Position numbers and translations under genes: made by a program. A model generated the notes under the pieces. The model had not been told where the DNA came from, searched no databases, and worked only from the letters and a program-made list of their open reading frames with translations. A stretch of 64,000 nucleotides of DNA. It comes from a virus. Taxonomy: Duplodnaviria; Caudoviricetes. Shown one piece after another: positions 1 to 56,064 of the stretch; the stretch's first letter is position 1, and each line of letters begins with the position of its first letter. The DNA lies in the IMG/VR virus record IMGVR_UViG_3300021255_005861, positions 32,001 to 96,000 of that record; one strand, given 5' to 3'.

Positions 1-312
1 CTCAATATTACCGCCCGCATGGTGGACAGTATCGACAACCTCTCCTTCCGCCTCGACGCCATCGACAACGCCCTCGGACAGCGCAATTTGGACGAGATGT
101 CCCCGCAGGAGCTCATCGCGATGTTCAACCAGGCCCGCGACTCCTTCAGGCTCCGCCAGGACTTCCTCAAGGCCCTCTCGGGCTACGAGGCCGATACCTC
201 CAAGGTGCCCGTGGACACCGACGTGGACGGCAGGGACAACTCCGTGTCCGAGGAGGACGCGGAACGTATCAAGGCACAAATACTAGGCCAAGAGGTGAAA
301 CATGAGAATTAA
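1..312 (+). CDS. hypothetical protein, probably 5'-truncated by the window edge
   Basis: Frame open from base 1 to the stop at 312; codon usage like other phage genes. Confidence 0.6.
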   Translation, partial: LNITARMVDSIDNLSFRLDAIDNALGQRNLDEMSPQELIAMFNQARDSFRLRQDFLKALSGYEADTSKVPVDTDVDGRDNSVSEEDAERIKAQILGQEVKHEN

Positions 313-805
313 GGTACACGAGAAGAACTCCCCCGAGACCGTCCAGTACTACAAGGACGTATGCGACCTGCTGTCGGGCACTTTCTCCGACTGCCGCATC
401 CGCAGCAACTTCCCGTTCCTGCTCATCGACGAGGGGCGATTCCCCTCCAAGGACGTGCTCGGCGACCAGTACTACGCCACGACCCGCCTCAAGACCAACG
501 ACCCGGTAGTGCGCCTGCAGGTCAATATGGGCCCGAAGCACGGGTTTATCAAGGAATTTGAAATCCATGGTACGCCCGAGGACATGGCCGAGGACATCGC
601 CCTGACCATCGAGGACAAGATGCCCGAGTTGTGGAAGCACTTTGACGAGGACTACGACGAGGCCATCAAGAAGCAGTTCGGGGGCCTCTACACACACTTC
701 TACGACAAGTACCTCGACGTTATTGAGGAGTACAAGAAGCAGATGATGCCCCCTTCCGATATCCGCAGGGAAGTGGACAAACTGATAGACAGGGATTCAG
801 ACTAG
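302..805 (+). CDS. hypothetical protein with MRIKVHE N-terminal tag
   Basis: 167-aa ORF, GAGG RBS, shares the M-x-I-x-V-x-E motif. Confidence 0.8.
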   Translation: MRIKVHEKNSPETVQYYKDVCDLLSGTFSDCRIRSNFPFLLIDEGRFPSKDVLGDQYYATTRLKTNDPVVRLQVNMGPKHGFIKEFEIHGTPEDMAEDIALTIEDKMPELWKHFDEDYDEAIKKQFGGLYTHFYDKYLDVIEEYKKQMMPPSDIRREVDKLIDRDSD

Positions 806-853
806 GAGGTAGACTCTAGTACGAGATAACATATATAAAGATGGATAAAGGTA

Positions 854-882
854 TTGCAAAAATGAAGTAGAATATGTATTTT
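854..882 (+). promoter_or_regulatory. sigma70-like promoter
   Basis: TTGCAA-N17-TATTTT immediately upstream of a structured non-coding region. Confidence 0.55.
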
Positions 883-883
883 A

Positions 884-1221
884 TATCAAGAAATCGCTGT
901 CCGTAAGATGCGAAACACGAGTTGGTGAATGTCGTAATTATGGCGAGGAGAACCCATCGCCGTCCAGCGTTTGAGTGTTAGCGGCAAGGGCAGGTAGAGT
1001 TTCTTGATACCGGCGATGCCCGCCGGGAATCAGCCCCGCAAGGGGCGCAACGCAACCCGAGATCGGGGCTCTGGCTTCTTCCGTAAGGATTAAGTGAAAC
1101 CCTGGTCGATGAAGGTCGATGAAGGTCGGTGTAGGCCGGAGCCCGCAAGGGCGAGGGCTACGCACCGGGCGGCTTGATAGGGAGCCGTTTGAATCAAGTG
1201 CCCGGTCTGACCGGCGCACCA
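884..1221 (+). ncRNA. candidate structured ncRNA of unknown class
   Basis: No credible ORF; 10-bp helix 884-893/1000-1009; hairpins with GCAA (1033-1046, 1141-1152) and GTAA (1080-1089) loops; ends in CGCACCA. Confidence 0.55.
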
Positions 1222-1285
1222 TAATATAACCAAGTATGGGACAGCCTATACCTTCCTATACGTTTTATGAGGCAGATAACTGATA

Positions 1286-1414
1286 ATGGATAAGAGATTC
1301 TTTGCCGGGCTTAACCTGGCCGACGCGGTTGAGGGGCAGAACGTCCTGCCCATCCTGGAACTCGAAATCGAGACGGACTGCATCCTGGATGCAACCACGG
1401 GTCTCGCAATCTAG
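1286..1414 (+). CDS. small hypothetical protein (42 aa)
   Basis: ATG..TAG, MDKRFFAGLNLADAVEG...; below the ORF-track cut-off. Confidence 0.45.
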   Translation: MDKRFFAGLNLADAVEGQNVLPILELEIETDCILDATTGLAI

Positions 1415-1426
1415 ACGGTGGCGCGC

Positions 1427-2188
1427 ATGGAACCGACAATTTACAAACCGAGCGCGTACAAGACACCCGGAGTGTACAAGGGCGCGGGAGGCATATACAA
1501 CGGGCGCGGTATTTACAAGTATAACGAAAATGTAATAGTATATGAAGATTTATTGTTCTGCATGTACGGAAATAAAGAAAATTCTAGGTTTATTGCTGAT
1601 TATTCCGTAGGTCCATTATATTATAGTAACTACAATTCCGCGTTGTTACGAACGGCAGAAGTTAGAAAAGATGTGCTACCAATAGGCGAAGTACCTATAA
1701 TTTATTTGTATGATGTAAAATCAAATTTTGATTATTATACAGAAAATTTTGTATTTGATATAGACGGGTTTACAATTGATTTTTATATAAAAACTCCGTG
1801 GGCGTCTGGAACAGAACGTACAAAAATAGCTTTTCTAGGTTTACGAAATGCCTCAAACGTCCGGTCTGCTTTTATTTTTGGCCCTTTTGTCAACGGGATA
1901 TATTACAATCCTGGAACTGGTGGAAAAAATATAACTACGCAACAGGGCGCGGCAGGGTGGAATCATTGGGAATTGGACTTTGATACTAATACACGTTCAC
2001 TAACCTATTACTTAAATGGAGTACTTACAAAACAGGTTACAATTTCATTGAGTGATATAAAACAAATAGACTTGGCTGGTGTTTCTCTTGAATCCAATCA
2101 CCCTGAAACTTATGTTTCACAAGTGGCCATGTGGAAAAAGAAAATGAATGGAGCTTGTTTTCAAATGGGGAAATATTTTAACGTATAA
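1427..2188 (+). CDS. putative ConA-like/LamG lectin-domain virion or adhesion protein
   Basis: FTIDFYIK, GWNHWEL..D, YYLNG motifs; Gly/Tyr-rich N-terminus (PTIYKPS..YKGAGGIY); AT-rich body. Confidence 0.55.
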   Translation: MEPTIYKPSAYKTPGVYKGAGGIYNGRGIYKYNENVIVYEDLLFCMYGNKENSRFIADYSVGPLYYSNYNSALLRTAEVRKDVLPIGEVPIIYLYDVKSNFDYYTENFVFDIDGFTIDFYIKTPWASGTERTKIAFLGLRNASNVRSAFIFGPFVNGIYYNPGTGGKNITTQQGAAGWNHWELDFDTNTRSLTYYLNGVLTKQVTISLSDIKQIDLAGVSLESNHPETYVSQVAMWKKKMNGACFQMGKYFNV

Positions 2189-2346
2189 AACGCGAACCCC
2201 GCTCCAACAAGTGACGCGGAGCCCAACGATTCAAGTTGCTGGTTAGGTCGGCACAAAGAACATAGCGTTTAAATAGCACACTCCGTTACAGGACTATTTA
2301 ACGCGACCGGGTTTTTAAACGTGGCTCAAAAAGCTCGGAGTTTGTT

Positions 2347-3227: not shown

Positions 3228-3248
3228 TTCGCCTCCTTGTCCATTACA

Positions 3249-20890: not shown

Positions 20891-21256
20891 ATGAAGATTA
20901 CAGTACGCGAAAACCGCAAGTCCGAGTCTTGGGGCGAGATCGCCGACCTGCTCCGCGGCAGGGGCTACACGCCCGACGACGAATCGAAGATACTGTGCGC
21001 CTACCTTTCACTCAAGACCGGGATAGACACGCCCGACGAGGTAACCGTCATCGCCAGGTACTACGAGGACGGGGCGGAGCTCGCTACCGAGGTAGTGGCC
21101 GGGTCATACGACACTAGCGATAGCGCCCTGTACAGCACGTTCATCGCCAGCGAGGAGCGGGGCGTGGACGCGAAGCAGGCGCAGCAGTGCCTGAGAAACG
21201 CGGAGAAGGCCGCCGGTTTGTACGTCCGTGCACTGCAGGAGATCAAGAATGGCTAG
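20891..21256 (+). CDS. tagged protein (MKITVRE)
   Basis: Start reassigned; N-terminal tag followed by NRKSE. Confidence 0.75.
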   Translation: MKITVRENRKSESWGEIADLLRGRGYTPDDESKILCAYLSLKTGIDTPDEVTVIARYYEDGAELATEVVAGSYDTSDSALYSTFIASEERGVDAKQAQQCLRNAEKAAGLYVRALQEIKNG

Positions 21257-21820: not shown

Positions 21821-22801
21821 ATGAAGATTACCGTCAAGGAAGCCAAGATATACACGGCTGACGACTTCAAGGCCGCCGCCGAGGAGGAGCGCTTCAAGAA
21901 TCGCGCCGAGATATGGGCGGACCAGTTTAACGCCCATGCCGAGTACATCGGCCTGAAGGACCGCGCCCACGTCGAGAAGGACATCCACGGGTGTGACAGC
22001 GTCGTGTGGGACTACGGCTACATCGTGGCGAAGGACCCGTTCGGCGACAAGTGGCAGGTCCGCTTCGGCGACAACGCGTACACGATGGCGAATACCAAGG
22101 TTACACCCTACGTGTACAGGCAGATGGACTCCATGACCGGGTTCAAGGGCGAGTCCCGCAAGTCGGAGCGCGTGGACTTCGGTGCACGCACTATCTCCAT
22201 CCCCATTGGCACGTTCCATTCCTACGACCTCGCCCAAGATGTAGCGAACCGGATCACCTCCGCCTGCGATTACATCGAGGCGGACGCCCGCCAGCAGGGA
22301 CATCGCACGGACGAGTGGGTAACCGTGCTGACATTTGAGCCCAAGTACTTCCGTGACTTCAAGTCCTACTACACCGAGAACTACGACTCCTACTGCTATA
22401 TGGTCACGTCCACGATGGACGACTTCATCCGCCCGGATGAACTGGAAGTCCGCGCGTACAAGAGTGAGTCTCGCAAGAACGAGGCGTCCGACAGCATCCG
22501 CGTCTATGACGAGGACTTGATGGTTGAACTGACCTCCGTGGAACGCTACGACGACCGCTTTACCGATGTCCCCGTCGTGGGCGACAAGTTCGACCTGTTG
22601 GAGTTCCGCGACCTCGTAGAAGGCCTCGCAGAGACCAGCAACGGCTATCCGGACATCTCCCGTGACGGCAGCGAACTCCGCGTGGCCATCGAGGTCGCGC
22701 AGGGCGACGGCGACGAGTACCGCGAGGAACTCGTGCTCCGTGGAACGGTGCGCGTCATGCACGCCGCGCTGGAACAGGTTGTCGAGTACCTCGAAGGTTA
22801 A
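21821..22801 (+). CDS. tagged three-module protein (MKITVKE)
   Basis: ESRKSE and ESRKNE linkers. Confidence 0.8.
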   Translation: MKITVKEAKIYTADDFKAAAEEERFKNRAEIWADQFNAHAEYIGLKDRAHVEKDIHGCDSVVWDYGYIVAKDPFGDKWQVRFGDNAYTMANTKVTPYVYRQMDSMTGFKGESRKSERVDFGARTISIPIGTFHSYDLAQDVANRITSACDYIEADARQQGHRTDEWVTVLTFEPKYFRDFKSYYTENYDSYCYMVTSTMDDFIRPDELEVRAYKSESRKNEASDSIRVYDEDLMVELTSVERYDDRFTDVPVVGDKFDLLEFRDLVEGLAETSNGYPDISRDGSELRVAIEVAQGDGDEYREELVLRGTVRVMHAALEQVVEYLEG

Positions 22802-28308: not shown

Positions 28309-31281
28309 ATGGCAGACATCAACGACATCAAGAACCGCACCGTGTCCCATGGGACACTCAACCCCGATCACCTTATTCCCGCTTTCTGCGACGTGCTGAA
28401 GGAGTACGCCCCGGAAAAGTACGCGGAGTTCATCAAGGACTACCCCGAGCTCGACGGCTGGGAGGAGTTCCTCGAGGCCGATTGGCGCCTCGTGTCAAAC
28501 GATACCAAGATGAACGCAAGCGACGAGTTGTTCGGGCTGCTGAACGACATCGCCCCCGAGGGCACAATGTTCAGTTCCACGGAAGGCGACGGGTCGGACT
28601 TCGGGTTCTGGACGGTCGAGGAAAAGAAGTCCGAGGCTGACGATGACAATAAGGATCTTAGAATCGGACTATATTATACTGAGGAAGAGCTGGCTATCCT
28701 GAAGGACATATTCAAGAAGTATGTCCAGGAAATTAGCGGAATCCGGTATAGCGTTCCTGAAGACTATACTATATCCTACGAGATTAGCGACGACCCTCTT
28801 GGCGACTTTGAGGCTGTCGTAAAGGCTACCGGCAAGAATGGCAAGACGATTTACTTGTGCAACCTGCATGGCGAAGTTCTTTGGGCGGTAAATACGCCCA
28901 AGCAGTTCTGGCATTATGTGGGTCAGGTGGACCCCAAGACGGGCGAGGAAAAGAAGGACAAGTACGTTATCCCGCCGAGGTCCTTCTTCCTTGATGACGA
29001 GTACTATGACAATGTAAAGCCGAGTACCAGGATTCCGTTGAACCCGTCCGACTGGGACAAGGTTGACGACTACTTCAAGAGATTCTTCAAGAAGAGAGGT
29101 GAAGGTTTCCTGGACGATGACGAGGGCGAGAAGGCCCTCAAGCAGATGGCCAAGGACGGCAAGAGCACTGGCGAGGTCGCCGCTGACATCCGATACGACG
29201 TCGCTACCACACTCGACATGGCGGCAGATAAGGCCGAGGACCTGATGACCAAGTTCGGCCTGGACAAGATTTACGTGCTACGCGCCAAGGGGCTGTCCCC
29301 GAAGGCCATCGCGAAGAAGATCCTGAAGGCTTGTGAGTCCAAGGCCGAGGCTGCACTGCGCCCCTGGAGGACTGACTTCGAGAAGGACCTCCAGAAGCGC
29401 ATAGACGATGCCAAGGGTACCAAGTACGACACCAAGAACTTTACCGCGGACGGCTGGGAATTCGTGACTGGCGACGTGTATGACGATGGCTCCGAGTATG
29501 GTAGCAACGGCAAGGATGTCGCCGTGGCCTTCTTCAAGCGTGAGCATGACGGCCAGTATTACCGCATGTGGCTTGCCTTCGACCCGGACACCAAGGAAAT
29601 TACCGGTGGCAAGTGGTGGATTGAGAGCGACGAGTCCAAGGACGAACGCCGCGACAGCGCCGACTACCTCCAGGAGGTGTGGGACGCCCTTGTATCCGTA
29701 TGGGACAAGGAAAAGTTCGACATGGCCAAGGGCTACGACGACGAGTACGAGTGCGAGGCCATCACTATTGTCTCCAAGGACAACGAGGGCGTACGCGCCA
29801 AGATATACGTGGATGACCACGAGGGTAAGCACCCGGTTGGATTCGACGTCATCTACCGCTACCCCGGCGACAAGGGCGTAGGCGACCTGGGCTACTACGA
29901 GTTCCAGAGCACGGACTTTGACGAGACCGCCCCGGAGATATTCGCCTACTTCGACGAACTCAAGGGAAAAGTTAGCGAGGCCAAGGGAGACAACTGGGTA
30001 GCCTACTACTTCTGCGAGGACCCGCAGGGTCTAGAGTGGGCGGTGCTCCCGCACGCCATCAATGGCATCGGCAACGCCTCCTGCGTAAATTCCCGCGGTG
30101 GCAATGACAGCATCGCTATCGAGTATGTGCTGGACGAGTGCACTCCTATCGAGGACGTGAAGGGCTCGGACATCTACGGCAAGGTTAAAGACTTCGAGGA
30201 CCGCAACATCGTGGCTCTCACGAGGGACGAGGCCGAGCGCATCGCCATTGCCGATGACCGCCTGGAAATGTTGAAGTCCGTAGTGGCTGGCAAGGACGAG
30301 TCCTGCAAGAGAGAAGCCACCGGCGTCGCCGCCATCTATGGCGACGGGGACGTGTCTACGCATGAGAACTCCGCGGACGGCTTCTACGTGGACGAGCACG
30401 ATCCGATGGGCTTCGCCGTCCTCAACAACGACACTGCCACGATGAAGGAACTCTTCTCCGGCAAGGCCGTCGCTCCCGAGAAGCCCTGGACATATGCGGG
30501 CTGGCACGAGGACACCGACGCTCCCGAGAACAAGGACGGCAGTTACCCCTACGTCTACGACTGGGAACGCGAGTACGACCTGAACTTCGTGAACGACTGG
30601 AAGCGTGTCGTTGGGGACAAGGACAACGAGGAAGCCCTTGAGCTCCTGCTCAAGTATGCACCGGACTTCATCCCGTCGGCGATGGACTTCTGGAACGCCT
30701 TCCACGCTGGCTACAGCAAGGGACTGCTCCGCAAGCTGTTCAACAACATCTTCGCCGTCGTGGACAAGGACGACCCGAACAACAACTACCTCGGCTACGA
30801 GGACTACACGTACGATGAGGTCGCCAAGTTCCTGGACGGCAAGGACGAGGCTGCCGATAGCCGTCGCGTTGACGACTATGCGAACATGCGCTTCTTTGAC
30901 CCGGAGGAATTCGTCAAGTACGTACGCAAGGCCTATGGCAAGGATGGGGGCTATGTATCTATTGACTCCGTCGTTCCAGTTTCCGTTCTAAACAAGGCCA
31001 ACCGCATGGCGCAGAAGAACGGGTATAGCAAGCTGGAGTCCAAGAAGTCCGAAAGCCTGACGCTCAAGCAGAAGGAACTCAAGGACATGGCCCGCTACGG
31101 CGAGGCAGAGGACATCACCACGATATCCGACGCCGAGGCCAAGGAACTCAAGAAGAAGGGTATCGAGACGGTGGGCGTGAGCCGCGGTACCTACGGCATG
31201 AACGGTGCGCTCCTGCGCGACCGCGATGGCAACAAGTACGTTATCACCGCCCGCAGTTCTAACCTGTTTTACTTTGTATAA
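28309..31281 (+). CDS. large multi-module (polyvalent-like) acidic protein
   Basis: 990 aa, about 8 segments separated by EKKSE/ESKAE/ESKDE/ESCKRE/ESKKSE. Confidence 0.85.
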   Translation: MADINDIKNRTVSHGTLNPDHLIPAFCDVLKEYAPEKYAEFIKDYPELDGWEEFLEADWRLVSNDTKMNASDELFGLLNDIAPEGTMFSSTEGDGSDFGFWTVEEKKSEADDDNKDLRIGLYYTEEELAILKDIFKKYVQEISGIRYSVPEDYTISYEISDDPLGDFEAVVKATGKNGKTIYLCNLHGEVLWAVNTPKQFWHYVGQVDPKTGEEKKDKYVIPPRSFFLDDEYYDNVKPSTRIPLNPSDWDKVDDYFKRFFKKRGEGFLDDDEGEKALKQMAKDGKSTGEVAADIRYDVATTLDMAADKAEDLMTKFGLDKIYVLRAKGLSPKAIAKKILKACESKAEAALRPWRTDFEKDLQKRIDDAKGTKYDTKNFTADGWEFVTGDVYDDGSEYGSNGKDVAVAFFKREHDGQYYRMWLAFDPDTKEITGGKWWIESDESKDERRDSADYLQEVWDALVSVWDKEKFDMAKGYDDEYECEAITIVSKDNEGVRAKIYVDDHEGKHPVGFDVIYRYPGDKGVGDLGYYEFQSTDFDETAPEIFAYFDELKGKVSEAKGDNWVAYYFCEDPQGLEWAVLPHAINGIGNASCVNSRGGNDSIAIEYVLDECTPIEDVKGSDIYGKVKDFEDRNIVALTRDEAERIAIADDRLEMLKSVVAGKDESCKREATGVAAIYGDGDVSTHENSADGFYVDEHDPMGFAVLNNDTATMKELFSGKAVAPEKPWTYAGWHEDTDAPENKDGSYPYVYDWEREYDLNFVNDWKRVVGDKDNEEALELLLKYAPDFIPSAMDFWNAFHAGYSKGLLRKLFNNIFAVVDKDDPNNNYLGYEDYTYDEVAKFLDGKDEAADSRRVDDYANMRFFDPEEFVKYVRKAYGKDGGYVSIDSVVPVSVLNKANRMAQKNGYSKLESKKSESLTLKQKELKDMARYGEAEDITTISDAEAKELKKKGIETVGVSRGTYGMNGALLRDRDGNKYVITARSSNLFYFV

Positions 31282-31293: not shown

Positions 31294-31962
31294 ATGTCCA
31301 AGATGACGATTAAAGTTCGTGAATCCAAGAAGCGTTCCGAGAAGCGGACCGTTCAACCGCCTAGTTATGATGTCTATACCTACGATGAACTTTCGGACGA
31401 AGCCAAGGAAAAGGTGAAGGATTGGTTCCTTGACATTCGTCGTGAAGACGATGGGGGTATTTTCCAAGACTCTTGCCTGGAAACTCTTAATGAAGTGTTC
31501 CCTAATTCCGATGTTAAGGTAGAGTATTCTCTGTCTTATAGCCAAGGCGATGGTTTTAATACCTATGGCAAGTTGGATGTGAATGACTTGTTGAACGTAG
31601 ATTTGTCTAAATACCCACTAAAAGACTCCAAGTATATCACTCCGCTTTCGGACAAGGACGCTATTAAGGCGGTATGTGAAAAAGCGGATGTTACAAGTAT
31701 TGACCTGCCCGAAAACCGCAGATACGGCTATTCTATGGCAGACAGAATTGAGGTCGTTCCTGATTACGATGTGGAATTGACCGACGAGGAAACTGCCCTG
31801 TTGAGTGAACTTGAAAAGTTTGCACAGGATGTTATGGGTTTTCTAAACAGTCATTTTGAAAGCAGTGGCTATGACTATTTTTATGAAGCCACTGACGAAG
31901 AAGTTGCTGATTGGGCAGATGTGAACGAGTATGAATTTACTGAAGATGGCAAACTTGCATAA
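31294..31962 (+). CDS. tagged acidic protein (MSKMTIKVRE)
   Basis: YTYDELSDEAKEK...YSQGDG...NEYEFTEDG, a common phage domain. Confidence 0.8.
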   Translation: MSKMTIKVRESKKRSEKRTVQPPSYDVYTYDELSDEAKEKVKDWFLDIRREDDGGIFQDSCLETLNEVFPNSDVKVEYSLSYSQGDGFNTYGKLDVNDLLNVDLSKYPLKDSKYITPLSDKDAIKAVCEKADVTSIDLPENRRYGYSMADRIEVVPDYDVELTDEETALLSELEKFAQDVMGFLNSHFESSGYDYFYEATDEEVADWADVNEYEFTEDGKLA

Positions 31963-31968: not shown

Positions 31969-32820
31969 GTGACTATGAAGCAGTTTAAGTGCTCTATGAG
32001 CAAGAAGAACGAAAAGGGCACTACACAGATTGAAACTTATGAGGGCTTTGACGAACTCTTGGGTTATGCCGATGCCGAATATCTGCTTGAAGATGTCGTG
32101 GACGTTCTCTCCAAGTATTATACTTACGAAGATGAAACCTTTGACGAAGACCAGGCAAAGGATGACCCCGAATTTACTATCAAGATAGAAGGTGGTGATG
32201 AACGGGCTGATTTCTACTCCGAAGATATTTTCTACGTTCATCTGCCTAACAAGGAAGCCGCCGAAGAATTGGCAAAGGTCCTGGGTGGCGAGTTGAGCGA
32301 ATCCAAGAAACCCGAATCCTGCAAGGACGGCAAGAAAGAGAGTATGGAACGCTGCGACTCTTGCGGTGCGGTTATGACCGAGTATGACTATGACCGCTAT
32401 GGTGGTCTTTGCAAGCGTTGTAGGGATAAGGGCGAGGCGAAGAAGCCTGCTGAAAGTTCCAAGAAGTCCGAAGGCATCTCCGATATGATCGACGCCAAGA
32501 TCGACTACAACATGTTCATGCGCATGTGCAAGACCGCTGCATATCTCGAGGAGGACGAGGACTACTGGGATGCCCTGTGGGAATACTACTCCGAAGTAGG
32601 TAGCATTGGCGACGCGCTCGTGTTTTTCGACAACTTGTTCCAGTATACCTCTTGGAAAACCGCAGAGGAATTGTGGACGGACTACTCCAATATCCTCGGC
32701 GACAAGCCGGAAGGTAAGGACTACGAGGAGGCTCTGGACGCCTACTTGGATGAAAATGACAACGAGGTGGGGAGATCTGCCGTCTACAAGTATGGGGACC
32801 ACTACCTCATGCTCCACTAG
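31969..32820 (+). CDS. multi-module acidic protein
   Basis: SKKNE, ESKKPE, ESSKKSE linkers; small CxxC module. Confidence 0.75.
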   Translation: MTMKQFKCSMSKKNEKGTTQIETYEGFDELLGYADAEYLLEDVVDVLSKYYTYEDETFDEDQAKDDPEFTIKIEGGDERADFYSEDIFYVHLPNKEAAEELAKVLGGELSESKKPESCKDGKKESMERCDSCGAVMTEYDYDRYGGLCKRCRDKGEAKKPAESSKKSEGISDMIDAKIDYNMFMRMCKTAAYLEEDEDYWDALWEYYSEVGSIGDALVFFDNLFQYTSWKTAEELWTDYSNILGDKPEGKDYEEALDAYLDENDNEVGRSAVYKYGDHYLMLH

Positions 32821-33331: not shown

Positions 33332-33733
33332 ATGAAGATTACCATTCACGAGGCACGCAAGTCGATAGTCACGGAACTCACGTCCGCTATCCAGAAGAAC
33401 AAGCCCAAGGTTCTATTGAGCGACGACGCCGTGGTGTACTTTGATGACTACGACGATATGCTTGACGAGTTTGAAACCGCCTACCAGACATACGTCCACG
33501 TCAGCGGCAACCCGGACGAGGACATCCTGTTCTTGTACGAGCCCGACGAGAATATCGTGGTTATCGGCGACTTCGACGTAGACCACGAGGCTCGCGACCG
33601 CGCCAAGGAACTCATGGAGAAGTTCGTCCGCGGGGAACTGGTCAAGGCCGACAAGCCCCTCGGTGGACTGGATTACGTCGTTATCGAGGACGGCAATACC
33701 TATACTGCCACGGCATTCGTGGAAAGGGAATAG
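33332..33733 (+). CDS. tagged acidic protein (MKITIHE)
   Basis: Start reassigned. Confidence 0.75.
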   Translation: MKITIHEARKSIVTELTSAIQKNKPKVLLSDDAVVYFDDYDDMLDEFETAYQTYVHVSGNPDEDILFLYEPDENIVVIGDFDVDHEARDRAKELMEKFVRGELVKADKPLGGLDYVVIEDGNTYTATAFVERE

Positions 33734-36251: not shown

Positions 36252-36776
36252 ATGCTCAAAATCCGAGTTCACGAAAGACTTAACGAGGCATTCAACCCCA
36301 AGACCGTCAAGATTGGCAACCAGGTGTGGATGGCAGAAAATCTCGCCATTGACGATGGTGGCGAGGGTATTAAGGTTCGGAATGGAAATACATATTATGA
36401 TTGGGATGCTGCGATGCGTGTGGCTTCAAACATAAAAGGTTGGCATCTGCCGACATTATCCGAATTTGAAGATTTAGTTGAATTTGTAGGTCCCAAACCC
36501 GCAAATAAATTGAAATCCACAGAGGGATGGGTATTTGAAGAATGGCGGGGTTTAGATACAAAAGGCACTGATGATTTTGGATTTACAGCCCTGCCCGTGG
36601 GGTGTATGGACGTAGCGGGTCTTGGAGGCGTAGGCTACCGCACTCGGTTTTGGAGTTCCTCTTGTAGTGATAAAAAAACCGCCCGAACACTGTCATTATG
36701 GAATGATTTGTCCCGTGTAAATTTCCTACACGATGATAAAGAACTTCTTTTGTCCGTCCGCTTAATCAAGGACTAG
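36252..36776 (+). CDS. tagged Fib_succ_major (FISUMP)-like protein
   Basis: TVKIGNQVWMAENL, GWHLPT..EF..L, GTDDFGFTALP, FWSS, SVRLIKD. Confidence 0.85.
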   Translation: MLKIRVHERLNEAFNPKTVKIGNQVWMAENLAIDDGGEGIKVRNGNTYYDWDAAMRVASNIKGWHLPTLSEFEDLVEFVGPKPANKLKSTEGWVFEEWRGLDTKGTDDFGFTALPVGCMDVAGLGGVGYRTRFWSSSCSDKKTARTLSLWNDLSRVNFLHDDKELLLSVRLIKD

Positions 36777-37481: not shown

Positions 37482-40247
37482 ATGCCTAAGTCCGCATTTC
37501 TACATAAGAAGAGTCTGCTCGACACGTTCAAGGACGACTACAGGGTCACGAACCCGATAAAGGCCGCCCGAGCCGAGCGCACGTGGGACAACCCCATCGT
37601 GCGCCACAAGCGCGAACGCGAGATAAACAAGTGGGCTCACTCCTTCGCGGGCAAGAAGCACTTCAGGAAACTGACGCGGTTCAACGCCACCAGAGAGGCG
37701 AACGAGTCCTGCCGGGTGCTATACCCGCTGGAAGACGTGGTCAAGGTGGTAACGGACGCCCTGCGAACCATACGGACGCGCATATACCAGGTGGACGGGT
37801 ACTACCAGTTCATACAGGACAAGTTACAATACGGCATGGTCGTGGCCAAGGATATCGCCCACAGGGACTTCCCGTACAGGTGGGAGGTGCAGGCCAACCT
37901 GGTCACGCGCTTGAAGAAGGGCAACGAGATAGTAATGGAATACCATCCGGATACCCCGGAACAACTTAGCGAGTACCTTCAGGAAGAAGGTGCTATAGAA
38001 TCCAACGAGGCTAAAATGAAGATCAGCGTACGCGAGAGCAAGAAAAACGAAAAGGACGAACCGACCTACGTATGGTTCGGCCTGGAACATGACGAGGACG
38101 GGGATTATACTGACTCCCTGGCCGTATTCGTGGACGACGTTTCCAACGGCATGGTTACGGTCTATGCCCACATGGGACAGCACTCTTCTGCGAGCCTGGA
38201 CTACGTGGCAGGACTGGAAGCAGACCCGAACCCGAAGGGCGACTTGTACAAGGAACTCATCGGACAGGGCTACGACAACCTCGTGGTTGTTAATACGGAT
38301 GTGGCCGAGGATATGCTCGGCATCCGCATGCACCCGGACGACGATGCCCGCGAACTTGAAGACCCGGAGAAGTACGACAAGTACGAAGCCCGCGAGGTCA
38401 AGACGGCCTGGACGTATCTCGGGGAACTTGAAAAATTGGAAGGTGCTGACTCCCGCAAGGAGGCTACCGGAAAGATGCTGGATGCGCTCGGCTATACGCA
38501 GGGTACTGAAGGTCGCTGGTATGACGATGAAGGCGACGAGGTGAATATCATCGACGTGCTTGACAACACTGAGTGGGACAAGGCCGTGACTATATGCGGC
38601 CCGCTCCAGGAGTCCAAGAACGCCCGCGAGGACTTCTACAAGGGTAAAGACCGCGGGTTTCTCGTGCTCGTGCAGAAATTGATTGCCGACAACTGGTATG
38701 CCGGTGCACGCAAGGAATATCCCGGCCTTACCCTCGACTGCTACGAGATGGACGGTGCCGGCGACGACATGAAGATTTGTTTCGAGGCCTACGGCGAGGA
38801 GATAGACGACCCGATGTCTGAAGGCCTCATGGAGGTAGCGGAGGAGTCCGCAAAGAAGGGATGCGCCGACGCGAACCGCAGTACCTACCCGCGTATCGCG
38901 GACTACGGTCTGGAAGCCAACTTTATCAGTTGGGACGAGCCCAACGTGTTCCGCGACCAGTGGAATTACGTGATAAACTTGAGTTCCAAGCCCAAGGGCA
39001 AGAAGGGCGAGTCCAAGAAACAGGCCAATGAAATGGTTGGTAATAAAAAATGGGTTATCCGCATCAAGCGTCTTGGTAAGAACTATTACGTATGTAGCAG
39101 TTCGTTTAGAGTCAATAAGGCATTCCGTTATCCTTCATTGGGTGGACCATTTGTCTGCTCGGATTGGGATATAACTGAAAGGGATATAGCCAAATACGAC
39201 AATTACAATGACGCAAAGAAAGCGTGGGATAGTATGGCACAGGTTCTACGTGGAGGATTGCCATTCTATAAGGAAGGTGAAGATTACGAGATAGTCCAAG
39301 TAAATTTTTCTATGATGGGCGAGTCCAAGGAACCTGCCGACGAAAAGTTGGGTTATGAAAAAGGACACAAGAACAGCAAGGGCGAGCCTGCCCCGTGGGT
39401 TATCCGTTCCCACGAGGACAACCGCGTACTCGCCTCCTTCGCGAACAAGGACGATGCCTACGCCCACCTCCAGCGCATGAAGCAGTACTCTGAGAGCCGC
39501 TCCGTGGACGACTACGACACCCTGCGTGACGGACTCAAGGAACTCGGCTTCGAACTTGACTCCGATACCCGCAATGGTAAGGTCTACGCCTACCGCTCCC
39601 GCTTCAAGGCTACGAAGGACGGAGTTGTTTACCGGTTCATCATAAACGAGGACGGAGAGGATACCGCTTCCATCGAGGTCTTTGTCGGCGACGACGAGAA
39701 GTCCACAAGATACAAGACCGTGAATGACGTGCTGACAGCATTTAAAGGTACGTCCGAGTCCTTCCACAAGGTCCAGGTCAAGGACACGCTGTTCGACATT
39801 CTCAAGAAGCACGGGGTAAACGACAAGGCCAAGGTGTCCTATGACGGCGACGCCATCGTGTGCGAGTATGACGGCACCACGATCCGTATCGACAACGACC
39901 TCGCCCTGACCGCCAAGATGCAGGACAAGACCATCGACCGCAAGTACGGTACGCTGGCAGACCTCTCCGCAGACCTGGACAAGTATTTTACCAAGTACGT
40001 CAAGGAGTCCCTTGAGAAGAACGGCGTCATCGTCGTTCCCGAATGGTTGTGGATAGCCTACGAGACGGGCGACTCCTCCAACCTCTCCGTCGAGGAGGAG
40101 CAGATACTGGATGGGTTCCGGGCGATGGCCGCGGGCAAGGTGTTTGACGCTGAAGCCGAGCCCTCGTTCAGTGCGTTCAACGACTTCGACGACTACGCCG
40201 GAAACTGCTACGAGGTGCAAGTCTATACAATCAAGGAAGGTGTATAA
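37482..40247 (+). CDS. large multi-module (polyvalent-like) protein
   Basis: 921 aa; internal MKISVRESKKNE; YAHMGQHS module; many ESK linkers. Confidence 0.85.
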   Translation: MPKSAFLHKKSLLDTFKDDYRVTNPIKAARAERTWDNPIVRHKREREINKWAHSFAGKKHFRKLTRFNATREANESCRVLYPLEDVVKVVTDALRTIRTRIYQVDGYYQFIQDKLQYGMVVAKDIAHRDFPYRWEVQANLVTRLKKGNEIVMEYHPDTPEQLSEYLQEEGAIESNEAKMKISVRESKKNEKDEPTYVWFGLEHDEDGDYTDSLAVFVDDVSNGMVTVYAHMGQHSSASLDYVAGLEADPNPKGDLYKELIGQGYDNLVVVNTDVAEDMLGIRMHPDDDARELEDPEKYDKYEAREVKTAWTYLGELEKLEGADSRKEATGKMLDALGYTQGTEGRWYDDEGDEVNIIDVLDNTEWDKAVTICGPLQESKNAREDFYKGKDRGFLVLVQKLIADNWYAGARKEYPGLTLDCYEMDGAGDDMKICFEAYGEEIDDPMSEGLMEVAEESAKKGCADANRSTYPRIADYGLEANFISWDEPNVFRDQWNYVINLSSKPKGKKGESKKQANEMVGNKKWVIRIKRLGKNYYVCSSSFRVNKAFRYPSLGGPFVCSDWDITERDIAKYDNYNDAKKAWDSMAQVLRGGLPFYKEGEDYEIVQVNFSMMGESKEPADEKLGYEKGHKNSKGEPAPWVIRSHEDNRVLASFANKDDAYAHLQRMKQYSESRSVDDYDTLRDGLKELGFELDSDTRNGKVYAYRSRFKATKDGVVYRFIINEDGEDTASIEVFVGDDEKSTRYKTVNDVLTAFKGTSESFHKVQVKDTLFDILKKHGVNDKAKVSYDGDAIVCEYDGTTIRIDNDLALTAKMQDKTIDRKYGTLADLSADLDKYFTKYVKESLEKNGVIVVPEWLWIAYETGDSSNLSVEEEQILDGFRAMAAGKVFDAEAEPSFSAFNDFDDYAGNCYEVQVYTIKEGV

Positions 40248-40689: not shown

Positions 40690-42059
40690 ACCCTAAAGGA
40701 CAAACTTTAACTGTAAACCAGTAACAATTATCTAATTTTTATGAAAACGGTTAAATTGCAAATATCTAATATACCTGATATACAAGATGACTTACGTACG
40801 TTTAGTAGTATGGTACGTATTGCATTTAATCGTTTTTATGAGGGGCATACCGAAAAACAAATTACTGAATATTTAAAGATACGATTTGTTACTAATAGCT
40901 GGGTCATTCGTTCGGCGATACAATCTGCCCATAATTTATATGTTGCACAAATTCCAAAAAATTCTATTTTTGGAGGAAAGACTAATCTTGTTCGTTATTT
41001 AAAAGGTTTAATTACAAAAGAACAATTTAGACGTAATCGGCAGTTTCCGTTTAGTAGTACTGGTGAAACACATTATAGAGGTAACAGACTATTTGATTTT
41101 GATTTTGATAATAATCAAGTAATATATAAGTTACATAAGGGATCATGTAAAGTTATTCAATTCCGTCCAGTAAAGAAGAAACTAGCCAACGAGTTAGCCA
41201 AGGTTCAAGAGCTGGCAGACCAGAAGAAGATGTCTGTAACCGTCAAGTTCACGGACAAATACCTCTATCTTACCTATGATGAGTCCTTGATTTACAATGA
41301 TGCCTATAAAGGTTTAAAGGCTAATAGAGTTCTAGGTATAGATATGAACCCCAACTACATAGGGGTGTCTGTTATTGAGTTCAACAAGAACGATGAATTT
41401 AGGGTCTTGCATAAGGAAGTGTATGATCTGACAATGCTTACGAAGCCTAGTGGTAAGTCTAGTAGTGATGCTAAATCAAAGTATCTTACAAATAAGTTGA
41501 AGCACGAGACCATCGCTATTGCACATAAGATAAATAAGTTAGTGGATTATTGGAAGTGCAGTAAACTTGCTATTGAAGATCTGTCTATTAAGTCCTCGGA
41601 TAAAGGTAAGGGCAAGGTTTTTAACCGCCTATGCAACAACAAGTGGGAACGCCAACTCTTTGTGAACAAACTCAAAATGTTGGCTAATATCCACCGCTAT
41701 GAGTTGGTTGAGGTTAATCCGGCCTATTCTTCAATAGTTGGCAATTTCGCATATGGGAGTCCGAATACTCCCGATATGATAGCCGCGTCTATTGAGATCG
41801 CCCGTAGAGCATACAAGAAGTTTGAAAAGGGATGGTTCTATCCCAGGTTTAACGTTGAAACCCAAGACGAGCGATGGAAGCAAACGCTTGGTGGAGTGGA
41901 AACCTGGAAGGGCTTATTCCAAAAAATAAAAAAAGCGAAACTCAAATATCGTTTTCTGCTATCCGACTATGTTGGAAATGCAGTTTTTAGTAATTCCTAT
42001 AAAAATCATAAATGGAAATTTCTATCATTTAATTAAAGGAGTTATATTTTGCAGACCCT
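40690..42059 (+). mobile_element. TnpB-only element flanked by ACCCT direct repeats
   Basis: AT-rich island; ACCCT at 40690-94 and 42055-59; removal restores an in-frame gene. Confidence 0.75.
40741..42036 (+). CDS. tnpB: TnpB-related RuvC nuclease lacking a zinc finger
   Basis: LGIDMNP, LAIEDL, VNPAYSSIVG, DMIAASIEIARR. Confidence 0.8.
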   Translation: MKTVKLQISNIPDIQDDLRTFSSMVRIAFNRFYEGHTEKQITEYLKIRFVTNSWVIRSAIQSAHNLYVAQIPKNSIFGGKTNLVRYLKGLITKEQFRRNRQFPFSSTGETHYRGNRLFDFDFDNNQVIYKLHKGSCKVIQFRPVKKKLANELAKVQELADQKKMSVTVKFTDKYLYLTYDESLIYNDAYKGLKANRVLGIDMNPNYIGVSVIEFNKNDEFRVLHKEVYDLTMLTKPSGKSSSDAKSKYLTNKLKHETIAIAHKINKLVDYWKCSKLAIEDLSIKSSDKGKGKVFNRLCNNKWERQLFVNKLKMLANIHRYELVEVNPAYSSIVGNFAYGSPNTPDMIAASIEIARRAYKKFEKGWFYPRFNVETQDERWKQTLGGVETWKGLFQKIKKAKLKYRFLLSDYVGNAVFSNSYKNHKWKFLSFN

Positions 42060-42645
42060 CTATGTACCGAAATACAACCTGCACTACCGAGTGAACCCGA
42101 GGAACCCCCGCGAGCTCCAGTGGTCGCGCAAGCCGTTCGGTCCGGCCACCCAGTGGCAGCACGCGATGTCCTTCAAGAACCCCATCCGAGCCCTCGACCT
42201 CGACGACGAGACGAAGCAGGGTGTAGTTGTACTTAACGACAGCACCACGTACGTAGGGTCCGGCGTCCGTACGTGGGGGCGCAAGTTCTACCCCGCGGGA
42301 ACACGTATCTATAGCCTCTACGCTATCGGAGAATCAACGGAGAAAAAACCTATGTCCAAACTCAAGATTAAAGTACGCGAAGCATTCGGCGGTCCCTGCA
42401 CCCCGAAGGAACTCAAGAACGAGATGGCCAAAGTAATCTCGGACTTCCACAAATACATCGGCGAGCACAAGGGCAACGACCGCTATACCGGCACCGTCGC
42501 CTTCTACATCGACGACCTGGGCTACGGCAGCACCGAGGACGACAAGAAGGTGGTGCTGGACGTCATCGAGCTCCTCCGCAACGAACTCCTTCAGCTCAAG
42601 TCCATGATAGAGGACTCGCCCGTACCGGAGAATGACAATGCTTAA
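42049..42645 (+). CDS. two-module protein with internal MSKLKIKVRE tag; original 5' end displaced by the IS
   Basis: TTG start supplied by the element end; internal ATG at 42352. Confidence 0.65.
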   Translation: MQTLYVPKYNLHYRVNPRNPRELQWSRKPFGPATQWQHAMSFKNPIRALDLDDETKQGVVVLNDSTTYVGSGVRTWGRKFYPAGTRIYSLYAIGESTEKKPMSKLKIKVREAFGGPCTPKELKNEMAKVISDFHKYIGEHKGNDRYTGTVAFYIDDLGYGSTEDDKKVVLDVIELLRNELLQLKSMIEDSPVPENDNA

Positions 42646-43005: not shown

Positions 43006-43842
43006 ATGACTAAGTTCATTCGCCCCGACCACGAGTACACAAAGCAGAAACCCGGCTACCCCAAGCCCTTCGATCCCGCATACCACGACGACATCACGCG
43101 CCAGGTGTGGCAATATATCAAGGACCACAAGGAACTAGGCCTGGACAGCGGGTGGAAGGGACACACCTTCGTAGTCCTGGACGGGAAAAATGAACTCGCC
43201 CGCATCGACTACGACCGCGACACCGACAGCATCAAGGTGGACGTGAAGGGCATCACGAAGTCCTTCCCGTTCGACGGCGCCACCATCGAGGACGTGCTCC
43301 TCCCGGTCATCGACAATGCCAAGGACGAGGCCGCCAAGACCATCTGGGCGGTCAAGTTCGACACGCCCGAAATCGCCCTTGACGAGGAATACTACTTCCG
43401 CGACGCCTGGGGACACGTGGTCAACACCGCCGTAGTGGGAGACACTGTGTACCTCGAGCCTGATGGAGACAAGGGCGAGAAGGCCATCAAGGAATGGTAC
43501 GGGGACAAGGTGTCCCGTGTGCAGATGACCGACGAGGTATATGCGATTCTCCACCCGTCCGAGTCCAAGAAGTGCGAGCGCCTCTCCGACTACGGCTACG
43601 ATGACATCGTGAAGGAGATCGCGGGCGAAGTAGAGCATACCTTCGCCGACGAGGAAATCTATGACAAGACGGACAAGTACGACGTGAAAGTAGCACTGGC
43701 GAAGGCGCTCCGTACGTGGGCCCCGGACCTGCTCCTGAACATCGCCGAGGACGCCATGGAGAAACTCGGGTACTTCGCCAAGGACTACGACGCCTTTATG
43801 TCCGTGGTGAATGATGCAGTAGGCGATGCACTGAACGACTAG
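43006..43842 (+). CDS. multi-module protein
   Basis: ESKKCE linker; GGAGG RBS. Confidence 0.8.
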   Translation: MTKFIRPDHEYTKQKPGYPKPFDPAYHDDITRQVWQYIKDHKELGLDSGWKGHTFVVLDGKNELARIDYDRDTDSIKVDVKGITKSFPFDGATIEDVLLPVIDNAKDEAAKTIWAVKFDTPEIALDEEYYFRDAWGHVVNTAVVGDTVYLEPDGDKGEKAIKEWYGDKVSRVQMTDEVYAILHPSESKKCERLSDYGYDDIVKEIAGEVEHTFADEEIYDKTDKYDVKVALAKALRTWAPDLLLNIAEDAMEKLGYFAKDYDAFMSVVNDAVGDALND

Positions 43843-52827: not shown

Positions 52828-52857
52828 ATTTAAGAGCAAAATAGGAGATTCTTTTTT

Positions 52858-53304: not shown

Positions 53305-53310
53305 TTACCC

Positions 53311-54192
53311 ATGTCCTGGAAGGTGGCATATAAGAACCTGTATGGCGAACTGGAGAGCGAGGTGTTCGACACCCGTGACCAGGCCGACGCACGCTATGAC
53401 GAGCTGTCCCGCAGGTGTGACCTCTACTGGTCCACGCTGCGCGGTGGCGAGGACATACCCGATACCTGCGACATCGACTGGGTGGACGAGCCCGAGGAGG
53501 TGGACGAGGACGGGTCGTCCGCGTGTGCGCTGGGGGCTGTACCCACCGGGATGATAATTCCGAAGAGGAAGACTATGAAAATGAAGGAAAACGAGGAATT
53601 CTGGATTGACGTGGCGGCGCCCGAGTATAGGGGTGCGCCCGCTCCCAAATTCAACCCGAAGGCCATCAACGAGCCCCGCATCCCGGACGGAATGCGATAT
53701 AAGGAATACACGTGGTCCGAGGACGAGTTCACCGATGGTGATGTTATCTTGGACTGGGTGACACAGGAGACCTACACGCCGGAAGACCGCGAGGCCTTCA
53801 AGTCCGAGGTGAAGCGTGCACTCAAGGCGAACGGGTTCAAGGGCAAGGTTCAAGTCAATTTGAACGTCCGCGGCGAGGACGACATCGAGACGTTCTTCAT
53901 CGACATGGGCAAGAACGAGGCGTTCAACGCCAACCGCAAGGACTGGGCTAACGCCGCCAGTTATGACAGGTTCGCCCGTGGCGCCAGCGCGATGTACACG
54001 ATACTCGCCTTCGACCGCCGTATCGACGATGTGCTCGCGGACTACAACGACGCCTTGAAGTACATCCCGCACGGGGTCAACGGCGCGGTAGTGCCGTTTT
54101 TGAGCAAGTACGAGGCCGAGGACCTCTCCGAGGAACTAGCCTCCAAGGGCATCGAGCACTGCGTGTTCAAGCAGACACTGGAGATCGCGTAA
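53311..54192 (+). CDS. multi-module protein
   Basis: 293 aa; KENE and KNE junctions. Confidence 0.7.
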   Translation: MSWKVAYKNLYGELESEVFDTRDQADARYDELSRRCDLYWSTLRGGEDIPDTCDIDWVDEPEEVDEDGSSACALGAVPTGMIIPKRKTMKMKENEEFWIDVAAPEYRGAPAPKFNPKAINEPRIPDGMRYKEYTWSEDEFTDGDVILDWVTQETYTPEDREAFKSEVKRALKANGFKGKVQVNLNVRGEDDIETFFIDMGKNEAFNANRKDWANAASYDRFARGASAMYTILAFDRRIDDVLADYNDALKYIPHGVNGAVVPFLSKYEAEDLSEELASKGIEHCVFKQTLEIA

Positions 54193-54569
54193 TGATTATC
54201 AAGGTACACGAACACAAGGTGAAGGAAGCCGCTGCACTCGTATCCTACGTCATCGTTGCGGCGTTCGGCAAGTACAAGGACAGCAACGGCAGGGAGGGGA
54301 CTCTCTACGACGCCAGCACGATCGTCACGACCCGCGAGTTCGGCACCCCGAAGGAACTCGTGGACTACATCTTCCGCAAGCTGAAGATGAACCCCAGGAA
54401 CTGCACCGTGTCCGAAAAGGATTCCTCCAGTGAGTATTGCCTGGAGATAGTCTACCGCACGAAGGTTACGGCGCAGTCCTATATTGTTTACATCCAAGGG
54501 TACGAGAAACGCGAGATACCCAAGGCTGACGTGTCCGCCGCGTTCTCCTCCGTAATAAAGGAAGGCTGA
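54192..54569 (+). CDS. tagged protein (MIIKVHE)
   Basis: 125 aa. Confidence 0.75.
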   Translation: MIIKVHEHKVKEAAALVSYVIVAAFGKYKDSNGREGTLYDASTIVTTREFGTPKELVDYIFRKLKMNPRNCTVSEKDSSSEYCLEIVYRTKVTAQSYIVYIQGYEKREIPKADVSAAFSSVIKEG

Positions 54570-55036
54570 TGATTATCCGCGTACACGAGAACACTTCATA
54601 TTCCCCGAGGAGCAAGAAGTTCGTCGGGCTAACGTGGTCTATGGATAACCTCTCCGTGGACGACGGCAAGGGCGGCATATTCGAGAAGGACGGCGAGCAC
54701 TACTACACGTGGGACGCCGCCGTTCGCGTGGCCAAGTCCATCCCCGGATGGCACCTGCCCACTCCCTCCGAGTTCGAGAAACTGGCGGAGTACCTCTCCT
54801 ACGAGACGGACTCCACCATGGACGAATTCAACATCGTGCTCGCTGGCGAGGGATTCCTACTCGGCAAGCCCGCTATATACGGGGAAGGCGAGGTTGCCTC
54901 GTTCTGGACATCCGAGTATCTCGTGACGGCAGACCTGCTGGACGACCCGCAGGAACTAGTGGTCGGAAAACTTAGTGATACGTACGGGGACAGCCGATAT
55001 ACGGGCTGCTCCGTACGACTTGTAAAGGAAGGCTAA
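54569..55036 (+). CDS. tagged Fib_succ_major-like protein (MIIRVHE)
   Basis: WSMDNL, YYTWDAA, GWHLPT..EF..L, FWTS, SVRLVK; paralog of 36252. Confidence 0.8.
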   Translation: MIIRVHENTSYSPRSKKFVGLTWSMDNLSVDDGKGGIFEKDGEHYYTWDAAVRVAKSIPGWHLPTPSEFEKLAEYLSYETDSTMDEFNIVLAGEGFLLGKPAIYGEGEVASFWTSEYLVTADLLDDPQELVVGKLSDTYGDSRYTGCSVRLVKEG

Positions 55037-55041
55037 AGAAA

Positions 55042-56064
55042 ATGGTTATCGCTGAAGACTACATCCCGTTCGACGGGTTCGAGTTCATAGACGACATCTC
55101 GAAGGTGAGCGAGTCCGCCCAGTCCGAGGTGGCGAACTCCAAGGGCACGATACTTGCCATCGTCAAGGGCAAGCACTTCTGCCCCGGCGGCGTGTCCCGC
55201 AACCACCGCCTCTACACCGAGGAATTGTGGAAGTCCGTCGGCGAGAACGACGAACTGAAGCACCGCATGGACGACAACCAGATGCTCGGTCGCATCGGCC
55301 ACGAGGCCGAGATGACCGACGAGGACATCGCCGACGGCAAGTTCTCCCACTACACGAGGAACATCAACTGGGAAACCGGCGAGGCCGAGGACGTCATCCT
55401 CAACACCCCGATGGGCAACACGCTCTACACGCTCCTCCGCTCGGGCGTCAAGCTCTATGTGAGCAGCCGTGCGGACGGCGACTACAACGGCAAGGACGAG
55501 GACGGCAACGACATCCTCGACCCCGAAACGTACAAGCTGGAACGCTTCGACTTCGTGCAGGATCCGGGCTTCCTCGAGGCCAAGCCCAAGATGATAACCG
55601 AGTCCGTCAAGAAGACCGAGGCGGCGCACGAGAAGCAGGCCGAGGCACTCTTGGACGTTGCCCGCAGGCTCGGCGCCCCCGTGGAACTCGACGACAGCGA
55701 GTACATCGTGGAGAGCATGGGTGCTGGCAAGGTGTCGCTCGGGGGCATGTCCGGCACGGAGGACTGCTCGCTCAACGACTTTACCGAGGTCACGGCTGAC
55801 ATCGCCGAGTCCATCGTCAAGTACGTGGACGGCCTGCGTAGGGAACTGGACGAGAGCAAGGACACGATAAAGATGCTCCGCTTCGCCAACAGCAACGGCC
55901 TGGACGAGGACTACGTGGAACGCAAGATAGGCGAAGGGGCCACCTACGAGAGCCTCGCCCACGAGAAGCCCAAGCCGAGGCAGTTCAAGATGGTCGAGGC
56001 CAAGATGGACGAACCCGCGGACAGCGGCGACGACGTGTCCTTTCTCAATACCATATTCGGATAG
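55042..56064 (+). CDS. prohead protease (T4 gp21-like)
   Basis: SRNHRLY, LGRIGH, ILNTPMG, VSSRADG, FDFVQDPG. Confidence 0.88.
   Translation: MVIAEDYIPFDGFEFIDDISKVSESAQSEVANSKGTILAIVKGKHFCPGGVSRNHRLYTEELWKSVGENDELKHRMDDNQMLGRIGHEAEMTDEDIADGKFSHYTRNINWETGEAEDVILNTPMGNTLYTLLRSGVKLYVSSRADGDYNGKDEDGNDILDPETYKLERFDFVQDPGFLEAKPKMITESVKKTEAAHEKQAEALLDVARRLGAPVELDDSEYIVESMGAGKVSLGGMSGTEDCSLNDFTEVTADIAESIVKYVDGLRRELDESKDTIKMLRFANSNGLDEDYVERKIGEGATYESLAHEKPKPRQFKMVEAKMDEPADSGDDVSFLNTIFG

Follow-up and report, generated by a model that had tools for sequence, protein, structure and literature searches.

In a 64,000-nucleotide stretch of the genome of an uncultured tailed phage (the window; bases 32001–96000 of the single 185,666-bp virus record IMGVR_UViG_3300021255_005861, with a guanine-plus-cytosine (GC) content of 55%), a heptapeptide, [M/L]-x-I-[K/R/T]-V-[H/K/R]-E, recurs on proteins encoded in the head region and elsewhere in the genome, often preceded by M-S-K and often running on into S-K-K-x-E. 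We propose, at a probability of roughly 55%, that this tag is a leader and junction cut by the prohead protease of the phage and that it also addresses cargo proteins to the prohead. That the motif is a functional peptide we regard as practically certain. Its predicted role as a substrate site of the prohead protease is probable; an addressing role falls just short of an even chance, and the notion that the released domains would be injected effectors is a tentative one. Positions below are those of the window unless given as genome positions.

All sixteen N-termini listed in an earlier sequence-only reading, which had seen in them the signal of a capsid-loading cargo system, were present at their coordinates. 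Two of them, 38016 and 42352, lie in frame within open reading frames (ORFs) 37482–40247 and 42049–42645. The view of an N-terminal tag was confirmed for the N-termini and had to be widened, the tag being also an internal junction between constant and variable domains. A simple gene call over the whole genome gave 248 genes and 53,249 residues, in which the core [ILV][KRTH][IV][HKRSN][ED] occurs 26 times. It starts within the first seven residues of 17 of the 248 called genes, where shuffling of each protein gave 0.26 on average and never more than 2, an N-terminal enrichment of about 65-fold (Poisson P ~2e-24). Genome-wide there are about 24 tagged ORFs, 14 of them within a 34-kb head region and 7 or 8 beyond the window. 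The comparison of plus and minus strands, set beforehand as a test, revealed unequal frequencies in the window: 14 of 48 plus-strand genes are tagged (13 of 47 called genes and the uncalled ORF at 36252) and none of the 43 called minus-strand genes (Fisher P 5e-5). Confinement to the plus strand, as originally claimed, holds within the window and breaks down genome-wide, where two minus-strand genes (genome 135058 and 185214) are tagged.

The bodies that follow the tag are mostly unrelated by BLASTP and hhalign, the exceptions being the paralog pairs 36252/54569 and genome 99958/100404, and they are mostly acidic (isoelectric point (pI) ≤6.3 in 16 of 24 real tagged ORFs); both properties had been noticed from the letters of the sequence. 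Almost all are ORFans. Searches of nearly all tagged proteins against Pfam and PHROG returned only Fib_succ_major in two proteins, part of a phosphoribosyltransferase domain in another and PHROG families without an assigned function, and a search of the ESM Atlas gave no usable match. The partial phosphoribosyltransferase domain is C-terminal in a tagged protein of 268 amino acids (aa) at genome 1–807, outside the window, which is the sole tagged body with an enzyme-like domain. Also outside the window, a 33-codon ORF (genome 116166–116267), perhaps a remnant or a micro-protein, begins with a full tag; it is placed just 5' of an RtcB-like gene, in a different frame.

Four relatives were read to form, together with this phage (G000), a five-genome set: G001 (80 kb, 42% GC, protease 63% identical) and G002, G003 and G004 (213–216 kb, 46–48% GC, capsid protein 72–74% identical). 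Each record carries the same peptide in 5 to about 15 ORFs, often as M-S-K-M-K-I-K-V-H-E, and the Ile, Lys, Val, His and Glu of the tag each use several synonymous codons. Because of this synonymous variation, and because the peptide is retained in four relatives at 42–48% GC, selection acts on the peptide itself. A DNA-level element was ruled out for the tag on the ground that its codons vary. In orthologs whose bodies share 28–40% identity, the tag Ile and Glu are invariant. Counting back from the terminal Glu as P1, the most constrained positions over 65 tags are P7 (Met or Leu), P5 (Ile), P3 (Val or Ile in all 65) and P1 (Glu in 55), and the residue that follows is mostly Ser or Ala. Such constraints would fit a substrate bound as an extended strand. 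An isopeptide-forming tag was also considered and rejected, the Lys positions not being invariant.

The tag of the 121-aa protein at 20891–21256, whose orthologs in the relatives keep the tag and adjoin the protease, appears to lie outside the fold. An AlphaFold2 model built on an eight-sequence alignment is confident overall (predicted local distance difference test (pLDDT) score of 82), with residues 1–9 below 50 and the first helix beginning at residue 12, right after R-K-S-E. The model is alpha-beta-alpha; its best PDB matches, of middling strength (Z 5–7.6), include YbjN-like proteins and many type III secretion chaperones, and a Foldseek search of viral models returned no significant match.

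Tagged proteins are also highly variable. Among those of G002–G004, 17 of 28 had no homolog in the other three genomes, compared with 157 of 901 control ORFs; since the controls (at least 150 residues) were longer than the tagged proteins, and homologs of longer proteins are easier to detect, the contrast is no more than indicative. T-even internal proteins are likewise diverse, with the capsid targeting sequence (CTS) as their only common part (PMC3012670), and the hypervariability seen here is indicative of the same pattern.

A protease able to read such a site is predicted within the same module. The gp21-like protease that had been placed at 55042 was upheld by its match to the head maturation protease family PHROG 207 and by hhalign of a five-sequence profile against T4 gp21 (E 6e-5, probability 65%, 27% identity, 142 columns), in which both catalytic regions, that of His and that of Ser, match and K-M-I-T-E-S of this phage stands opposite K-E-I-T-E-S of gp21. 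Sequence searches with the protease found no match in Pfam or, with the single sequence and with its profile, in PDB. The proteases of T4, phiKZ, 201phi2-1 and SPN3US all cleave after Glu (PMC5694885, PMC10052503); T4 Alt loses a six-residue leader at I-T-E (PMC5694885), and gp245 of SPN3US cleaves itself on the C-terminal side of its catalytic domain (PMC5694885, PMC10052503). Directly after the catalytic domain of the present enzyme lies I-T-E-S-V-K-K-T-E (residues 185–193; 55594–55620), and I-[TS]-E-S-K-K-x-E occupies this place in all five phages, a position that, as read from sequence alone, is equivalent to that of SPN3US-type auto-cleavage. In the major capsid protein, a conserved V-x-E with Asn next to it (residues 63–66; 25444–25455) stands just before the N-arm and is a candidate maturation site. 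When the capsid profile was compared with T4 gp23 by hhalign, only a short C-terminal stretch aligned, so the candidate site is not mappable onto the T4 site.

The sequence into which the tag often runs is a motif in its own right. The hexapeptide E-S-[KR]-K-x-E was observed 59 times in the five genomes where 0.9 were expected (shuffle maximum 4), always on the plus strand and in head-module ORFs, and the next residue is Ala, Ser or Gly in 42 of the 59. Internal copies repeat up to six times, in a 1041-residue ORF of G001. In the window, two would divide 21821–22801 into three pieces of about 105 aa, one near the end of 28309–31281 precedes an 80-aa C-terminal piece conserved in relatives, and ORFs 31975–32820 and 43006–43842 also hold such sites. 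Either Glu of the hexapeptide could be P1. We also observed a second leader or junction, K-F-[KE]-C-S-M-x-K-K-x-E-S-L-A-K-K-x-E, both at N-termini and internally (31975–32020; genome 106646, outside the window; G001–G003), which can stand in for the I-K-V-x-E tag on an orthologous body.

Comparison between genomes suggests how these peptides are used: homologous domains bear different leaders or precursors in different phages. A 96-residue stand-alone ORF of G001 is made up of the tag, S-K-K-N-E and a domain which in window ORF 43006–43842 follows the internal E-S-K-K-C-E. The protein at 31294–31962 and its G003 ortholog share one mature part behind two different leaders, the second being of the K-F-K-C-S-M-x-K-K-x-E-S-L-A-K type. 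The whole of 33332–33733 reappears as the final domain of a longer protein of G002, that protein being composed of a tag, an extra 140 aa, E-S-K-K-S-E and the same domain, and the parts before and after the tag of the 921-residue ORF are separate genes in G003 and G004. Read in this way, the tag and E-S-K-K-x-E are module boundaries.

A further case is ORF 42049–42645, whose first 97 residues form a constant domain without a match in Pfam, PHROG or PDB. A full HMMER search of 1.84 billion representatives with this domain gave 34 hits. It is present in at least 25 metagenome clusters besides that of the window itself, in proteins of 165–437 residues in which the N-domain is 73–98% identical and the C-terminal parts are longer and differ. 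In 19 of the 23 clusters that were read in sequence, E-S-K-M-...-K-I-K-V-H-E comes directly after the constant domain and is followed by unrelated C-terminal domains; in three (P0009, P0013 and P0015) the tag occurs only ahead of a later domain, and in one (P0014) there is no tag. Two cargo domains are present in 8 of the 23, most with a tag ahead of each, and more distant relatives comprise the constant domain alone. Pfam searches of ten of these carrier fusions gave just one weak lectin-like match, with nothing recognisable as a toxin or immunity domain. The junction codons for G-E-S-K-M (42340–42354; P0008–P0031) can form a Shine-Dalgarno-like GGAGA about seven bases before the Met codon; hence the cargo domains might also be translated alone from internal starts.

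Table 1. Tagged, motif-bearing and neighbouring features of the window (all amino acid motifs in one-letter code)
Feature	Position	Strand	Remarks
Tail sheath	upstream of window
Tagged ORF, 167 aa	302–805	+	acidic; N-terminus checked; no Pfam/PHROG match
Tagged ORF, 121 aa	20891–21256	+	tag, N-R-K-S-E, then fold
Tagged ORF, 326 aa	21821–22801	+	internal E-S-R-K-x-E at 22151–22168 and 22466–22483
Major capsid protein, T4 gp23 family	25258–26898	+	PHROG 138; Pfam Gp23; alignments
Tagged ORF, 166 aa	27265–27765	+	pI 4.5; directly 3' of capsid gene
Tagged ORF, 176 aa	27762–28292	+	pI 4.3
Head-module protein, 990 aa	28309–31281	+	E-S-K-K-S-E at 31036–31053
Tagged ORF, 222 aa	31294–31962	+	tag, then S-K-K-R-S-E
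Second-leader ORF, 281 aa	31975–32820	+	K-F-K-C-S-M-x-K-K-x-E; internal E-S-K-K-P-E (32299) and S-K-K-S-E (32458)
Tagged ORF, 133 aa	33332–33733	+
Tagged ORF, 174 aa, lectin-like	36252–36776	+	Pfam Fib_succ_major
ORF with internal tag, 921 aa	37482–40247	+	tag and S-K-K-N-E at 38016–38051
Tagged ORF, 76 aa	40247–40477	+
Carrier-junction-variable ORF	42049–42645	+	97-aa domain 42049–42339; tag 42352–42381; variable C-terminal domain
Tagged ORF, 118 aa	42638–42994	+	start possibly 42632
ORF with internal hexapeptide, 278 aa	43006–43842	+	E-S-K-K-C-E at 43561–43578
Large terminase, 749 aa	44131–46380
Tagged ORF, 145 aa	47924–48361	+	GTG start; tag ends Asp; promoter-like TATATTTAG upstream
Weak tag variant, 176 aa	48365–48895	+	tag ends Asn, not Glu
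Tagged ORF, 125 aa	54192–54569	+	listed immediately 5' of protease
Tagged ORF, 155 aa, lectin-like	54569–55036	+	paralog of 36252
Prohead protease, gp21 family	55042–56064	+	C-terminal extension; PHROG 207, E 7e-22; hhalign vs T4 gp21
Variable repeat of diversity-generating retroelement	61718–61834		sole variable repeat

The setting of these genes (Table 1) is that of a T4-like head module with distant cultured kin. The closest cultured relatives are Rhizobium phages of the Kleczkowskaviridae, Ralstonia phage RP13, Thermus phage phiLo and E. coli phage IME392, with capsid identities of at most 34%, the best being to the Rhizobium phages; megablast against cultured phages gave zero matches. The tag is absent from the head module of IME392, and that of RHph_TM30 is compact and has no array of small genes. 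Positional orthologs of 54192 keep a tag in G001 and G002; homologs of 36252 in the relatives are without it. The terminase aligns with those of the relatives in two pieces, together no more than about 75% of its length, so it may hold an insertion. Two promoter-like classes were seen: TATATTTA(G), resembling the Bacteroidota TAnnTTTG element, lies 5' of structural genes and several tagged genes, and TTGCTATATTG mainly 5' of replication genes (20865, 27211, 32866, 35185, 37470, 47901, 51781 and elsewhere for the two classes together).

Much of the original cargo-system reading stands: the peptide signal is conserved in the clade, mostly unrelated bodies follow it, it is biased to the head region and ends in aliphatic-x-Glu, and a gp21-family protease and hypervariability accompany it. 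In the mechanism that we propose, the leader or the carrier domain would draw the protein into the assembling prohead core before cleavage. The T4-type prohead protease would recognise the tag and cleave after its Glu so that, upon activation of the protease, leaders are clipped and multi-domain precursors are cut at the tag and at E-S-K-K-x-E sites. Free cargo domains would result within the head, some of which may exit with the DNA. It is tempting to extend this to a universal junction for plug-and-play cargo cassettes, in which the carrier or the tag alone docks unrelated effectors into the prohead, possibly via the cleft of the still-inactive protease, the protease frees them, and the junction DNA serves as the recombination point for cargo swaps. 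This extended scheme, which we consider speculative and on balance doubtful, would give phages their own analogue of polymorphic toxin systems, each genome supplying dozens of injected effectors.

Several observations weigh against a protease-cut cargo address. The second Glu of E-S-K-K-x-E has Lys at P3, as opposed to the aliphatic P3 of T4-type sites, and the capsid protein displays only V-x-E and not the full tag. The AlphaFold2 model of the protease is poor (pLDDT 57); its top Foldseek match is T4 gp21 (5jbl), a weak one at E 0.15. The tagged gene at genome 135058 is the head of an operon with two helicases; replication-module genes do not wholly lack the tag. The two tagged lectin-like proteins would be easier to explain as exposed on the virion than as internal cargo. 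Finally, E-S-K-K-S-E is almost always encoded by GAA TCC AAG AAG TCC GAA (22151, 22466, 31036, 32299, 38034, 43561 and loci in the relatives). The first Ser codon of the hexapeptide is TCC in 47 of the 59 copies (80%), compared with a genome-wide TCC share of Ser codons of 25–29% in the four relatives, which account for 53 of these copies, and of 41% in G000. This bias hints at a contribution from the DNA level, for example a recombination junction or recent spread. The lectin-like proteins were also considered as targets of the diversity-generating retroelement and rejected, its sole variable repeat lying elsewhere.

The tag might be a processing site and nothing else. Tagged proteins would then be prohead core or scaffold, cut up and expelled in maturation on the model of T4 gp22, gp67 and gp68, with N-terminal tags as remnants of gene fission. 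The internal junctions agree with this, as does the resemblance of stand-alone M-S-K-M-K-I-K-V-H-E leaders to the junction E-S-K-M-...-K-I-K-V-H-E; moreover, many tagged proteins are small, acidic and encoded beside the capsid and protease genes, in the relative position of T4 genes 67-68-21. Scaffold components are, however, normally conserved and the tagged proteins are the most variable genes; trimming only seven residues from a folded domain would have no evident use unless the leader works before cleavage; and some tagged bodies have enzyme-like or lectin-like domains. We consider this explanation rather unlikely.

Less probable still is an uncleaved docking strand, in which the amphipathic peptide would join the sheet of a partner and thereby fasten diverse proteins to one another or to the virion. 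Conceivable partners are a chaperone-like receptor, the surface of the capsid or tail, and the constant 97-residue domain. Alternating hydrophobic and basic residues would suit such a strand, and so would the place of the tag directly after the constant domain, counted in at least 25 clusters (19 of the 23 that were read). The lectin-like bodies suggest surface exposure, and the fold of the 121-aa protein resembles, at its middling level of match, chaperones that bind extended peptides. Against docking, the terminal Glu with a small residue after it, the link to E-S-K-K-x-E and the boundary within the protease itself are features to be expected of a site for a Glu-specific protease; in the sole confident model the tag is disordered; and where a second or third tag occurs, it is remote from the constant domain.

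A leader for a modifying enzyme, as in ribosomally synthesised and post-translationally modified peptides (for example by a radical S-adenosylmethionine (SAM) protein), or a degron for a host protease or chaperone, appears very improbable. The genome does encode one radical-SAM protein (genome 127996–128643), but this protein is small (215 aa) and scores slightly below the Pfam cut-off, and its gene is not in the head region, being over 6 kb away from the nearest tagged one; the tagged genes themselves include none for a modifying enzyme, and the Lys and His positions of the tag vary. A bias of translation starts or mRNA, by which A-rich unstructured starts would encode similar residues by chance, draws on the A-rich first codons and on the commonness of M-K-I starts in bacteria, and is close to refuted by the synonymous codon variation, the retention of the peptide at 42–55% GC, the internal tags far from any start and the untagged minus-strand genes of the window.

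If the tag is indeed both a capsid address and a clip-off site, about one tenth of the genes of this phage would encode proteins delivered with the DNA. The tagged proteins are mostly fast-turnover ORFans, the pattern expected of host-takeover or anti-defence factors. A seven-residue code paired with a defined protease would allow candidates to be listed easily in metagenomes, and the tag could be reused for loading foreign proteins into capsids. The carrier-junction-cargo fusions, in turn, show how such arsenals might be shuffled.

The nearest precedent is the CTS of T4 internal proteins IPI–III and of Alt, which is removed by gp21 (Mullaney and Black 1996; PMC3012670, PMC5694885). Like the CTS, the tag is a short N-terminal peptide (6–10 residues) on otherwise unrelated, rapidly diversifying proteins, a gp21-family protease is encoded, and small tagged genes lie directly 5' of the protease gene as do T4 genes 67 and 68. 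Both signals end in aliphatic-x-Glu, the leaders of the T4 record ending L/I-x-E. In contrast to the CTS, the tag is strand-like, with Ile/Val alternating with basic residues; there are about 24 carriers per genome compared with about five in T4; and the tag, known here from its sequence, is also an internal junction coupled to E-S-K-K-x-E. The only likeness to the leaders of T4 gp21, gp22 and gp24 is the x-Glu end. The signal had been described as unlike that of T4: its sequence does differ, yet it obeys the T4 aliphatic-x-Glu rule (cf. I-T-E of Alt) and to that extent is less foreign than was stated.

In phiKZ, 201phi2-1 and SPN3US, propeptides of head and ejection proteins are processed; many head proteins are cut after Glu, with several sites per precursor, and the gp53/gp54 paralogs of this group have identical N-terminal residues (PMC5694885, PMC10052503). 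The theme of Glu processing, multiple sites per precursor and a boundary site in the protease is predicted here as well. In phiKZ and SPN3US, however, S/A/G-x-E motifs end long propeptides that differ from protein to protein, whereas here one nearly identical heptapeptide and one hexapeptide are reused on unrelated proteins, and S/A/G was not found at P3, a position taken by Val/Ile in the tag and, ahead of the second Glu of E-S-K-K-x-E, by Lys. The capsid protein and protease of this phage are also nearer to the T4 and Kleczkowskaviridae types than to those of phiKZ and SPN3US.

Polymorphic toxin-like architectures, including phage head proteins with MuF domains, carry variable C-terminal domains. 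The fusions described here share with MuF-type proteins a constant N-terminal domain, a conserved junction and highly variable C-terminal domains. They differ in that the constant domain is not a known head domain by Pfam, PHROG or PDB, no toxins are recognisable and the junction resembles a protease site. No paper came up in a literature search for the motif strings. The T4 CTS and the propeptide processing of giant phages supply the principle; the differences lie in the sequence of the tag, the number of its carriers, the coupled hexapeptide and the use of the tag as an internal junction in carrier-cargo fusions.

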